Of a stretch of DNA of 18,322 bases, positions 10,242 through 13,403 are shown one piece after another (position 1 is the first letter of the stretch; each line of letters opens with the position of its first letter). Both the position numbers and the translations under genes were made by a program. The DNA lies in the UHGV virus genome UHGV-1290461, one strand, 5' to 3'. The notes under the pieces are model-generated. The model saw only the letters and a program-made list of their open reading frames with translations, was not told the origin of the DNA and made no database searches. The stretch comes from a virus.

Positions 10242-10317
10242 TGGTGCTGGTTAACGGACTTGAACCGCTACCCATTCGCTTACAAGGCGACCGCTCTACC
10301 ATTGGAGCTAAACCAGC
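10242..10317 (-). tRNA. tRNA-Thr (anticodon UGU), 76 nt with encoded CCA
   Basis: Hand-folded cloverleaf: acceptor GCUGGUU/AACCAGC (7 bp); D-arm GCUC/GAGC; anticodon loop CUUGUAA; T-arm AGCGG/CCGUU with loop UUCAAGU; discriminator A then CCA. Non-canonical points: G27-A43 mismatch and C at position 14. Confidence 0.65.
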
Positions 10318-10322
10318 ATGTT

Positions 10323-10397
10323 TGGCGGGACAGCGTGGACTCGAACCACGATAAGAAGGTTAACAGCCTTCCGTAATGACCTTTATACGACTGACCC
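10323..10397 (-). tRNA. tRNA-Asn-like (anticodon GUU), 75 nt with encoded CCA
   Basis: Hand-folded: acceptor GGGUCAG/CUGUCCC (one U-U mismatch); anticodon stem GAAGG/CCUUC with loop CUGUUAA (same loop as E. coli tRNA-Asn); T-arm CGUGG/CCACG with loop UUCGAGU; G73 then CCA. Weak D-stem and 4-nt variable loop. Confidence 0.55.
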
Positions 10398-10446: not shown

Positions 10447-10482
10447 CTGCTAATTATGGCTAAATGACTAATTGCATGTCAA
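10447..10482 (-). promoter_or_regulatory. Putative late promoter pR' (-35 TTGACA, 18-bp spacer, -10 CATAAT), overlapping the 3' end of Q
   Basis: Consensus -35 TTGACA at 10482..10477 (inside the last Q codons) and -10 CATAAT at 10458..10453, immediately after the Q stop codon. Confidence 0.5.
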
Positions 10483-10978
10483 GGCTTTTAACAGCAACAT
10501 GCTTAACTTTCTCAACACGTTTACGCATTTTGAAAGCATTTTGCATTGGCTGGTACAAAACAAATAACGACGCTTTCAGGATGTCGTCAATTTCGTTTCT
10601 ACAGGTTGCCAGTGAAGGTTTTCTCCATCCCTCGCCACCACGTCCACACATCTTGCGTGGCTTTGCAGTCGCGTGATAGTAGGATGCAATTGCTCGCTTA
10701 GATGAACCATGAGCGTAGTAGCTGAGGAGGATGCCAAAGGCTTTCTTGTCAATGTACATGACGGAATCGACGACCTGAGAAATCAACATTCCATCATCAT
10801 CATTACACATTGGCCTTGTCATAATTCTTCCCGGCTCTACGCTCTCCATGAACTTCGCTATTACGCTGCTCATGCGCTTTTCCAGACGACCTGAATAAAC
10901 CCATGCGCCCCACAGTTCAAGCCAGCCATTCAGCCACTCGTGCTGCTCTTTGGTGAGGTTTAGTTCTCTTATGCTCAT
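10460..10978 (-). CDS. Q: Late-gene antiterminator Q, phage-82/QuuD-like family
   Basis: 172 aa. Motifs LELWGAWVYSG and TRPMCNDDDGMLISQVVD resemble the ERWGAW and RPxCxDDDxM motifs of the phage-82-type Q family. Sits between the nin region and the lysis genes. Confidence 0.75.
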   Translation of the reverse strand: MSIRELNLTKEQHEWLNGWLELWGAWVYSGRLEKRMSSVIAKFMESVEPGRIMTRPMCNDDDGMLISQVVDSVMYIDKKAFGILLSYYAHGSSKRAIASYYHATAKPRKMCGRGGEGWRKPSLATCRNEIDDILKASLFVLYQPMQNAFKMRKRVEKVKHVAVKSLDMQLVI

Positions 10979-11163
10979 CGTCTTCCCCTCTTGCCCTGTT
11001 TGACCATCAGGACGCCGTTAACTATTACGTGACGCTCGCCTTTGCTGTCTCGGTTGTACTTGAGCACTGTTCCTCTTGCGCAGGAAAGCATCCTCGCCAC
11101 TTCGGTCTGATTGCCTCGTGTCTGGATAAGAAGCTCTGGTATCGTTTGAATTGTGGCGTTCAT
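10975..11163 (-). CDS. ninH: NinH-like small DNA-binding protein
   Basis: 62 aa. TIPELLIQTRGNQTEVARMLSCARGTVLKY...IVNGVLMV fits the recalled NinH pattern (helix-turn-helix, Fis-like). Directly upstream of Q with an ATGA overlap. Confidence 0.6.
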   Translation of the reverse strand: MNATIQTIPELLIQTRGNQTEVARMLSCARGTVLKYNRDSKGERHVIVNGVLMVKQGKRGRR

Positions 11164-11522
11164 GCGTTCTCCAGTTCGGTGATTTTTATTCCAAGCCTTC
11201 CGCCTGGTACTTTCACGCCACGAATTACGCGAATGTCATCGAATTGCTCGTCGTCTTCCGCAAATCCGGCGTGGATAAGGGAGTCGAGTAAACCTTTCAG
11301 GATATTATCGAGGTCGCGACGGCGGGAGTCTGGAACGTCTGCGATGACTTTGATGCGGAGTCGTGATTTGGTGAAAATATCTAACTTGAGTTGGTGGATG
11401 ATTTGCTGAACGTCTTTTCGGTATTTCTGGCCTTTATCGCTGATGTAGTATTGGCTTCCCCGTCTTCGCCAGTAGGTATTCACCGACGGCGGGTATGGAA
11501 GCACAAACTGATATTCGTTCAT
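11160..11522 (-). CDS. rusA: Holliday junction resolvase RusA
   Basis: 120 aa. YPPSVNTYWRRRG, DVPDSRRRDLDNILKGLLDSL and GGRLGIKITEL match RusA (E. coli RusA is 120 aa and has the PDRRRRDLDN catalytic motif). Confidence 0.9.
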   Translation of the reverse strand: MNEYQFVLPYPPSVNTYWRRRGSQYYISDKGQKYRKDVQQIIHQLKLDIFTKSRLRIKVIADVPDSRRRDLDNILKGLLDSLIHAGFAEDDEQFDDIRVIRGVKVPGGRLGIKITELENA

Positions 11523-11797
11523 TGGACAAACACCCTCCCATTGTTAACCAATTTTTTAAGGGTAAGCACAATGGCCCGATCCATTTCAGCCCTTCGCTCT
11601 TCCCTGCTCATATCTCTCCCATTATCAATTCTTGAATGACAATCAACACATAGCGCAGCAGTAAGGCAATCATCTACTTTAATCCCAACCCCCTTCCCTT
11701 CATTTCTGTGAGCGGCCTGAACTCCGTATCTTCCGCAAAGAACGCAAAATTCAATATCCCTGACTGCCTGAAGCCATTTTTTGCTTCTAAACATCAA
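11519..11797 (-). CDS. YbcO-like (DUF1364) Cys-rich protein, putative metal-dependent nuclease
   Basis: 92 aa with Cys pairs FCVLCG ... CVDCHSR. Immediately upstream of rusA, as ybcO is in the DLP12 nin region. Start may be the second Met (11794). Confidence 0.5.
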   Translation of the reverse strand: MMFRSKKWLQAVRDIEFCVLCGRYGVQAAHRNEGKGVGIKVDDCLTAALCVDCHSRIDNGRDMSREERRAEMDRAIVLTLKKLVNNGRVFVQ

Positions 11798-12296
11798 TCC
11801 CCTCCAAAAAACGTCGGTACGCTGATTTGTTTTTTATGTTGCACACTGTCTGCGCACAAACACCAAATTCTTTGGCTATATCTCTGTATTTGCCTTTTGA
11901 TTTATATATTGATTTCACTTGTTCTGGCGTTAGTTTGCAGAAATGATGATTAAACCCATGAACAAGCAATCCGGAATCAAATCCATGTTTCGCATTTTCT
12001 GTTCGCGTTACCCACTCAAGATTTTCAACTTTATTATTAAGTTTATTTCCATCCTTGTGATTAACTTCCGGTTTGCCATCTGGGTTATCAATAAATACTT
12101 CTGCAACAATTCTGTGAACCATTTTATATGATGGTCTTTTCCCGCCACCTGGATACAGACCGACAAATGCATATCCTCCTGGTTTAATGCCATGAGATAA
12201 TTTTTTTGATTTACGGCATGAAATGATGTCTCCATTTTCAGTTACTTTATATATACCCTCAAAGCCGGGGATATCTTTTTCTTTAACATCACTCAT
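11787..12296 (-). CDS. HNH homing endonuclease (NUMOD4-like N-terminal motif plus HNH_3/AP2-type nuclease core, C-terminal helix-turn-helix-like tail)
   Basis: 169 aa. GFEGIYKVTENGDIIS (NUMOD4-like) and HRIVAEVFIDNPDGKPEVNHKDGNKLNNKVENLEWVTRTENAKH (HNH_3-like). The coding DNA is visibly AT-rich (about 36% GC by eye) against about 50% in the flanks. Confidence 0.8.
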   Translation of the reverse strand: MSDVKEKDIPGFEGIYKVTENGDIISCRKSKKLSHGIKPGGYAFVGLYPGGGKRPSYKMVHRIVAEVFIDNPDGKPEVNHKDGNKLNNKVENLEWVTRTENAKHGFDSGLLVHGFNHHFCKLTPEQVKSIYKSKGKYRDIAKEFGVCAQTVCNIKNKSAYRRFLEGIDV

Positions 12297-12465
12297 CGTC
12301 TTCTTCCTCGTACATTGAGCTATTCGGATCGCTCATCAGCTCTGCGCAGCAATCGGAGCACACGTGAACTTCCAGCACATGCAGCTTCTGACCGCAGTTA
12401 GCGCACGTTAAAGCTCGCTCGACGCTTTCTTTCTGGTATTGAATGGATTGGGATGGGCTAAGCAT
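12289..12465 (-). CDS. ninF: NinF
   Basis: 58 aa, hand-translated (below the ORF-track length cutoff): [58 protein letters not shown], matching lambda NinF as recalled. Stop overlaps the HNH start. Confidence 0.8.
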   Translation of the reverse strand: MLSPSQSIQYQKESVERALTCANCGQKLHVLEVHVCSDCCAELMSDPNSSMYEEEDDE

Positions 12466-12823
12466 TATTGGCGTCCTGCATCATGAGAAAGACAATCATG
12501 GCGGCGCGGAGTGGGTTTTCATCTTGAGTCATATGATATGGGGTACTATCACTGCCAACTTTTCTATGCGCTGCCTTCCATAATCCATTTTCTGGCGCTG
12601 GAATAATGCCAATTCTGTTCTCTACGATAATCGGCTCTGCGTCTGATGGGCTTTTACAGTAATCAACCGTTTTTATTGCATAACCAGTTTCGTCATCCCA
12701 CTCAACACCAACGATTGATGTTCCCAACTTTGCGATTTCGCAATCTTCGGGAGCAAATCCACAGCAAATTGCCACTCGCTTGTTAATTTCAAAATCACTT
12801 AACTGTGAATAATCCATTGTCAT
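12458..12823 (-). CDS. NinX-like protein (position between ninE and ninF as in P22)
   Basis: 121 aa from the internal ATG at 12823 ([23 protein letters not shown]...), which forms an ATGA overlap with the NinE stop. Assignment is positional plus weak recall. Confidence 0.45.
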
Positions 12824-12996
12824 TTCCTCGCACGATGTCTTAGCCACCGGATATCCCACAGGTGAGCCGTGTAATTGAAGGTTTTTACGTCAGATTCTTT
12901 TGGGATTGGCTTGCGTTTATTTCTGGAGCGTTTCGTTGGAAGGTATTTGCAGTTTTCGCAGATTATGTCGGTGATACTTCGTCGCTGTCGTCTCAT
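12820..12996 (-). CDS. ninE: NinE
   Basis: 58 aa from the internal [61 protein letters not shown], matching lambda NinE as recalled. ATGA overlap with the ninB stop. Confidence 0.75.
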
Positions 12997-13403
12997 TCGT
13001 ACCTCCTGTCGGTAAATCTGACACCCTGACCAATAGCCCATGCTGTCGTGTACTCAATCAGACTTGCCATACGCTTCACACTCATCTGCGCGCTACTTTC
13101 GCGAATGTTGACGTATTCGCCTTCAAGGCCGGGCAAAACATCAGCTTCCTGCTTTGTTGCCACTGCATGACCGCTGATCAACAAAACCTTCCATTGTTCC
13201 GGTTTTAACCATTTGCCGCACCATTGAACCTGACGTGCGATATCCGCCAGCATCGCGTGAAATTTTGCGTTCTGGTCAAGGTTGCGCTTGTAGTCAGTAA
13301 TGCGGATGGTGACTGGCTTGTCTTTATCGAGTGGTGTTGCGAGGATGGCATTTATTGCAGCTTGCTGTTGTTGCTTAGTTCGGAGGAAGATTGTTTGCTT
13401 CAT
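12993..13403 (-). CDS. ninB: NinB (Orf-family recombination mediator)
   Basis: 136 aa. Motif [31 protein letters not shown] parallels lambda NinB (LDQNRKLWACLGDVSRQVEWHGRWLDAESWK as recalled). Confidence 0.8.

Follow-up and report, generated by a model that had tools for sequence, protein, structure and literature searches.

The 18,322-nucleotide (nt) stretch of virus genome UHGV-1290461 analysed here (the window) carries, between the ninF and rusA genes of a lambdoid prophage, an AT-rich gene for an HNH endonuclease of 169 amino acids (aa), followed by a 91-aa gene that we call Y91. Both genes lie on the minus strand in the lambdoid early-right (nin) region, which occupies window 9.2-14.7 kb in the order NinB, a NinE-like open reading frame (ORF), NinX, NinF, HNH, Y91, RusA, NinH, Q, two transfer RNAs (tRNAs), holin and lysozyme. 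The features considered below are as follows.

11787-12296, minus strand: I-HmuI-type HNH gene, 169 aa, ATG start (Pfam HNH_3 and NUMOD4, PHROG 59)
12153-12278, minus strand: NUMOD4 / N-terminal beta-sheet DNA-binding region of HNH, aa 7-48 (Pfam; modelled beta strands at residues 6-59)
11991-12125, minus strand: HNH_3 catalytic His-Me finger domain of HNH, aa 58-102 (Pfam; motif VNHKDGNK...NLEW...EN with H80 and N101)
11799-11933, minus strand: C-terminal helix-turn-helix region of HNH, aa 122-166 (four helices at 124-166 in the model; weak CENP-B_N helix-turn-helix match)
11519-11794, minus strand: Y91, 91 aa, YbcO-fold His-Me finger gene of the DUF968/DUF1364 group (PHROG 131, E = 6e-31)
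11523-12288, minus strand: two-gene cassette HNH + Y91, delimited against phages that share ninF and rusA with other genes between them
12289-12465, minus strand: ninF, 58 aa (Pfam NinF, E = 8e-14); its last codons hold the HNH start codon
12303-12309, minus strand: GAGGAAG inside ninF, 6 nt 5' of the HNH ATG, a putative Shine-Dalgarno (SD) sequence read from the sequence
11799-11805, minus strand: GGAGGGG, SD sequence for Y91 read from the sequence, within the HNH codons for ...FLEG
11160-11522, minus strand: rusA, the conserved right flank (Pfam RusA, E = 2e-16)
12993-13403, minus strand: NinB, nin region gene
12458-12859, minus strand: NinX, nin region gene as listed
10460-10978, minus strand: Q, antiterminator gene

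The HNH gene overlaps both of its neighbours, as had been noted in an earlier reading of this DNA made from the letters alone (the sequence-only reading); each overlap measures 8 nt. Its ATG (12296-12294) is embedded in the last ninF codons, ATGAGTGA, where the ninF stop occupies 12291-12289, while its TAG stop (11789-11787) overlaps the ATG of Y91 (11794-11792), ATGTTTAG. The last codons of the helix-turn-helix region double as the Y91 SD sequence, and a relative (locus L019) likewise has GGAGG here. The TTG at 11797, chosen by the ORF finder as the start of Y91, is probably not the true start, because annotated relatives use ATG. No terminator-like sites were found at the HNH locus, and promoter-like sites did not exceed the shuffled expectation. 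An Rfam scan of the window returned the two tRNAs only and no group I intron; given this result and the overlap of the ORF with both neighbours, the HNH gene is free-standing. It has no promoter of its own and is read within the delayed-early nin operon of the lambdoid prophage. The best complete Escherichia coli genome or phage record covers 89% of the region at 95% identity, and none covers it end to end. The IMG/VR database contributed one contig encoding an identical HNH protein, its DNA being 98.3% identical, and otherwise relatives of no more than 54% identity.

The HNH protein and its YbcO-fold companion

The NUMOD4-like and HNH_3-like motifs attributed to the 169-aa ORF were borne out by the domain search, in which both scored above their Pfam cut-offs (HNH_3, E = 6.2e-11, 42.2 bits against 24.8; NUMOD4, E = 1.1e-6, 29.2 bits against 23.4). 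The ORF also matched PHROG 59, 'HNH endonuclease', with E = 7.6e-51, and its RefSeq label is 'NUMOD4 motif-containing HNH endonuclease'; a literature search found no paper characterising this gene. A chance-ORF reading was rejected.

The closest solved relative by sequence is I-HmuI (1U3E, E = 8.9e-19), the intron enzyme of Bacillus phage SPO1 and a member of His-Me finger group 2. The AlphaFold2 model, built on 39 homologues, has a predicted local distance difference test score (pLDDT) of 92.8, and its sole significant match in the PDB is again 1U3E (E = 4.7e-10, template modelling (TM) score 0.61), aligned over 162/169 columns including the C-terminal helical DNA-binding part. The two enzymes are similar in length (169 and 174 aa) and share the order of their parts, namely an N-terminal sheet, an HNH core and a C-terminal helix-turn-helix. 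They differ in that sequence identity is ~30% and that the HNH gene resides outside an intron, in a lambdoid enterobacterial prophage. Residues N79, H80, N92, W95, N101 and H104 are invariant among the 39 homologues. The catalytic His and the Asn are conserved between the two enzymes: H80 and N101 align with the His of the I-HmuI 'DH' motif, which is reportedly catalytic, and with the Asn of its 'IN' motif, said to bind the metal. On the basis of sequence and model, the HNH ORF is predicted to encode an I-HmuI-type endonuclease that acts on DNA at specific sites, and our confidence is high that it belongs to this family of endonucleases and forms part of a mobile cassette.

The gene that follows had been read as ybcO-like, and its product did prove to share the YbcO fold, but it is not an ordinary ybcO. 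Y91 matched Pfam DUF968 and YbcO weakly, below the gathering scores of both. Its AlphaFold2 model (pLDDT 89.6) found E. coli YbcO, 3G27, as the best PDB match, with a probability of 1.00, TM scores of 0.59/0.65 and ~16% identity. The DUF968 and DUF1364 proteins constitute one His-Me finger group (group 7) encoded next to RusA and Q (PMC5714182). Y91 resembles them in fold, length and position before rusA or Q, and is set apart from 3G27 by its low identity. HNH-linked copies of Y91 start with M[FY]RS. Its conserved pattern is CxxC...H...CxxCH. Judging from the sequence and the model, Y91 is a separate 91-aa YbcO-fold gene, different from the common DUF1364 YbcO.

The Y91 allele of the window was detected in 37 E. 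coli genomes, in 34 of them together with HNH and in 3 without it. HNH-free Y91 genes (those of the three E. coli genomes, Salmonella phage SEN22 and a Raoultella prophage) are preceded by another ninF type, which overlaps them by 17-23 nt, and have 1-7 additional N-terminal residues (MAIY.../MRIF.../MIY...). From this comparison, the longer HNH-free Y91 with the other ninF type looks like the ancestral state. In E. coli ET729 (L014 3495-3769), Y91 is annotated as frameshifted and HNH is intact.

Distribution, borders and footprints of the cassette

The G+C content of the HNH gene was said to be far below that of its flanks, and measurement in sliding 510-bp segments agreed: it is 36.5% (27.1% at third codon positions), compared with a mean of 47.8% (standard deviation 3.4) for the window, 50.8% for ninF and 48.5% for rusA. 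Only 0.12% of the segments are equally low, every one of them overlapping the HNH ORF, which is the lowest stretch of the window. Across loci, G+C of HNH is below that of the left flank in 11/11 cases and below both flanks in 10/11.

HNH DNA at 97.8-99.8% identity was found in 34/5426 complete E. coli genomes, always on the chromosome. HNH is also present in 2/50,697 phage records, those of coliphages Louie and Dewey, which are P22-like Lederbergvirus members (PMC12243541). An HNH relative is present in 2739 records of the phage collection, none of them between 99% and ~44% identity. The nine HNH alleles differ by 16 synonymous and 4 non-synonymous variants, so the gene is under purifying selection. 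Two alleles are nevertheless dead: in EA7, W95 in the invariant NLEW motif is replaced by a stop codon, and in E. coli AH19B041, aa 55-164 are removed by an in-frame deletion. Both retain the 3' end with the SD sequence and start codon of Y91. Rarity, patchiness, purifying selection and dead alleles together fit the pattern of a free-standing homing endonuclease gene. The HNH gene is real, selected and horizontally moving.

Several observations concern related genes or additional copies. Two chromosomal places each match HNH + Y91 in E. coli E10 (NZ_CM143887.1) and ET729 (NZ_CP100927.1), which may represent two cassette-bearing prophages per cell. Salmonella phage SEN22 has another HNH gene between ninB and ninD (L016 457-1038), E. 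coli AH19B041 has one between Q and holin (L008 4022-4534), and a second HNH_3 gene lies 5' of the cassette at locus L020 (1996-2544). A Morganella-type metagenomic contig (L124 3325-4455) encodes a 376-aa product matching both HNH_3 and the Q antiterminator, and phages N7 and HZ41 carry ~40% HNH relatives at loci outside their ninF-rusA region.

Comparison with phages sharing both flanks delimited the unit that has been exchanged. Homology of 683R2 and mEp235 to the window ends at 12288 and restarts at 11522, the start of rusA; therefore, the replaced unit is HNH + Y91. A lone insertion between two resident genes, as envisaged in the sequence-only reading, does not describe the locus, since the downstream gene travels with HNH. 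HNH relatives at 58-75% identity, traced via a protein index (species-representative genomes gave one useful locus only), are found in prophages of E. coli, Salmonella, Klebsiella aerogenes, Citrobacter koseri, Superficieibacter and Morganella. Each is followed by a 91-aa Y91 starting with M[FY]RS, with an overlap of 8-14 nt. This pairing is kept with NinF, hypothetical genes, a DNA methylase or DUF1367 on the 5' side and RusA or Q on the 3' side, and the identities of the two proteins vary roughly in parallel across the relatives. Two E. coli prophages with unrelated flanks have in common a block of ~810 bp, ~98-99% identical, which extends from the leader ATG of the HNH ORF to the rusA ATG. 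The prediction that a Y91 of exactly 91 aa starting with 'MFRS' has HNH on its 5' side, and one of 92 aa does not, held in 2/2 cases (Morganella and Raoultella). Because Y91 accompanies HNH, and its start codon and SD sequence form part of the 3' end of HNH, the two genes together make up the mobile unit. As delimited by these comparisons, the cassette measures 0.77-0.81 kb and occupies a 'ybcO slot' 5' of rusA or Q.

The left border of the cassette is a joint used by several genes. The 3' end of the window's ninF occurs in 1191/5426 E. coli genomes, and in 33/1191 it is joined to HNH exactly as in the window. The same ATG within the ninF stop begins ninG in Huey, roi in HK97 and HK620, an 89-aa gene in mEp235 and a 70-aa gene in 683R2 (window 12289-12296; matching sites in loci L003, L004, L015 and L037). 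These alternative genes start with ATGAGTGA(T) or a close variant, and identity of the window to the corresponding phages stops directly after ATGAGTGAT. The 'precise slotting' that had been credited to the HNH gene is, judging from these alignments, a property of the site, since that ATG also serves ninG, roi and two hypothetical genes.

The circumstances that the earlier reading had named as counting against it, a uniform G+C content and the lack of insert-free alleles, were not encountered: G+C is uneven, as described above, and HNH-free alleles of both flanks exist. An isogenic empty site, in which the window's ninF type abuts Y91, gave no match in a search with a gapped exact pattern of 185,579 species (one genome each) and IMG/VR. 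In the three E. coli genomes that have this Y91 allele but lack HNH, the ninF is of another type and cannot be aligned.

A further class of junctions lies within ybcO itself. Most HNH relatives are 178-180 aa long and open with 15-17 codons of a DUF1364 ybcO (MANLRKEARGRECQV..., MADLRKAARGREC... or MSKLTK.ARGRDC...) fused in frame to the apparent native HNH start. The leader DNA forms a 45-nt island that is 84-93% identical to the intact ybcO of HK97, mEp235 and 683R2, the homology ending after ...GAATGCCAGGT. The leader types correspond to different ybcO alleles, one of which we take to be that of DLP12. The HNH lineage of the window is without a ybcO leader and uses the ninF-embedded start instead. 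Within this lineage, E. coli QML220601 (L012 2955-2995) has the order ninF, roi stop, 29 nt of the ybcO 5' end, ~15 nt of the ninF 3' end and HNH. The joint is located at a patch of imperfect similarity and leaves a 16-codon ORF ending inside the HNH start region. This second joint, independent of the leader fusions, falls in the same short 5' part of ybcO as they do. We read the leaders and the QML220601 joint as putative scars of ybcO breaks repaired from a cassette-bearing genome, which would amount to intronless homing with replacement of an allele, of the kind described for the seg and mob genes of T4 (PMC2988022). A comparable fusion has been described in the P22-like Salmonella phage epsilon34, whose gene 31 joins the N-terminus of eaE in frame to an HNH homing endonuclease (PMC2629481). 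As appears to be the case for the ybcO leaders and the 'MSD' start of the window, an HNH gene takes over resident 5' codons; gene 31, however, belongs to the early-left operon, and no linked second gene is described for it.

Proposed homing on ybcO and rival explanations

Considering all these data, we favour the reading that HNH belongs to a free-standing homing endonuclease cassette that replaces ybcO by HNH + Y91, with a probability of about 0.55. A cassette-bearing phage would encounter a related phage or prophage with a common DUF1364-type ybcO, and HNH would nick or cut this gene near codons 10-17. Phage recombination would then repair the break on the cassette template, with ninF or the retained 45-nt ybcO leader serving as homology on the left and rusA or Q on the right, so that ybcO would be exchanged for HNH and Y91, a functional analogue lacking the cut site. 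Recombination systems of phages are able to use short and diverged homology (PMC2327257). Clean loss of HNH is disfavoured, because its 3' end holds the ribosome-binding site and start codon of Y91. Confidence differs between the parts of this scheme: that HNH homes is suggested by the sequence comparisons with moderate confidence, and that DUF1364 ybcO is its putative target, with low to moderate confidence. The fullest version, in which HNH is an allele-replacing enzyme that cuts the 5' end of competitors' DUF1364 ybcO and carries Y91 as a cut-resistant structural equivalent, each homing event swapping the gene type, is put forward tentatively.

Precedents are provided by the free-standing endonucleases of T4: their genes are promoterless cassettes situated between conserved genes, and the enzymes cleave an adjacent gene, with co-conversion of flanking sequence (PMC2988022). 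The HNH gene is similar to mobA-E and segA-G of the T-even phages in being part of a promoterless cassette between conserved genes of a polycistronic unit, in its patchy distribution, in harbouring the expression signals of the downstream gene and in its proposed action, in which an adjacent conserved gene is cut and the recipient allele replaced (PMC2988022). It differs in its temperate lambdoid context, in that the gene brought along by the cassette seems to be a distant analogue of the target gene and not a near-identical allele of it, and in that no co-conversion tract is visible at rusA. Among enzymes resembling I-HmuI, those of Skunavirus phages show marker exclusion (PMC12724721).

A number of observations weigh against homing on ybcO. 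HNH + Y91 are 98-100% identical among carriers and ninF 93-98%, and no co-conversion tract is visible at rusA, which is 96-98% identical in carriers and non-carriers alike. Both borders of the window's cassette, the ninF stop and the rusA start, are general lambdoid mosaic borders, and the post-ninF ATG also opens at least four other modules; since these are usual module borders, the placement could be explained by ordinary recombination. The ybcO leader could be one ancient fusion that was simply inherited, and its 15 conserved residues cannot separate a single fusion from repeated events. In the enzyme itself, Asn79, invariant in the clade, is aligned with Asp74 of I-HmuI, which is presumably a catalytic metal ligand. 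The HNH-Y91 pairing is not universal, because two exceptions were found: in Aggregatibacter actinomycetemcomitans (L036 2211-3471), a 55% HNH relative lies without Y91 between an intact DUF1364 ybcO and rusA, and in a Logan metagenome, the gene following the HNH relative encodes a 120-aa RecA_dep_nuc protein. Finally, the pairing, where it occurs, could reflect a joint function of the two proteins. As a separate observation, the Aggregatibacter relative indicates that members of the HNH family remain in the vicinity of ybcO and rusA beyond Enterobacterales as well.

The serious rival to homing is ordinary module shuffling, to which we assign a clearly lower, though substantial, probability. 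According to this explanation, HNH + Y91 would be one of numerous interchangeable nin modules, exchanged at gene borders through recombination (homologous, homeologous or illegitimate) and afterwards sorted by selection; the nuclease would have no part in the spread, being a passenger or performing some other service for the phage. The ninF-stop border shared with ninG of Huey, roi of HK97 and the 70-aa and 89-aa hypothetical genes, the equally general rusA-start border and the equal rusA identity in carriers and non-carriers would all be expected, and lambda Red, efficient on diverged or short homologies, is one suggested origin of the mosaicism of lambdoid phages (PMC2327257). However, two kinds of junctions, at about nucleotide 45 and at nucleotide 29 of ybcO, are intragenic and do not fall on gene borders; the characterised members of the HNH's family are homing enzymes (PMC5714182); and dead alleles, rarity and low G+C match the life cycle of a selfish element. 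It appears improbable, in turn, that HNH, possibly a nickase like I-HmuI, and Y91 form a functional pair cooperating to make double-strand breaks or to exclude or attack competing phages or host DNA, and retained together on that account. Nuclease folds in both proteins and their tight, translationally coupled linkage in six genera with roughly parallel divergence are what such a pair would show, but the joint-function reading is weakened because Y91 is common alone and stays intact beside dead HNH alleles. Y91-type genes without HNH precede rusA in RM8082, SEN22, HK225 and Raoultella, and HNH relatives without Y91 exist as well. PADLOC returned only generic 'homing endonuclease' models for HNH and no match for Y91, and a scan with the NCBIfam library gave no matches.

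Assistance in packaging, one of the roles mentioned in the sequence-only reading, would make HNH a helper of terminase cutting similar to gp74 of HK97, and HNH proteins with this role do occur in cos phages. For the gene of the window, we regard it as very improbable: the gene lies between ninF and rusA, within the nin part of the early-right operon and a long way from the terminase genes, and its product has the I-HmuI domain architecture with DNA-binding modules and belongs to what we take to be a different family from that of HK97 gp74. Moreover, P22 packages DNA by a headful mechanism, and both phage carriers are P22-like.

HNH is best seen as a free-standing homing endonuclease with the twist that a substitute for its presumed target gene is linked to it, and the cassette as an interesting selfish element of phages that is in essence ordinary. 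Much work has been devoted to the free-standing homing endonucleases of virulent T-even and Bacillus phages, and far less to those of temperate lambdoid phages, the mosaicism of whose genomes is usually ascribed to undirected recombination. If HNH does target ybcO and bring a substitute, part of this mosaicism would be endonuclease-driven and directional across several enterobacterial genera, and the cassette-bearing Louie and Dewey, together with the cassette-free Huey, HK97 and mEp235, would lend themselves directly to experiments in E. coli K-12. Otherwise, the finding comes down to a further annotated, uncharacterised HNH gene.

Two minor observations concern the remainder of the nin region. 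The NinE-like ORF (12820-13041) and the listed NinX ORF, with a GTG start at 12859, share 40 nt; the true NinX start probably lies further downstream than 12859, since relatives annotate NinX as 354-384 nt. The two tRNA genes, tRNA-Thr(TGT) and tRNA-Asn(GTT), are located between Q and holin (window 10242-10397, minus strand), and this pair also appears in the annotation of E. coli EC581.

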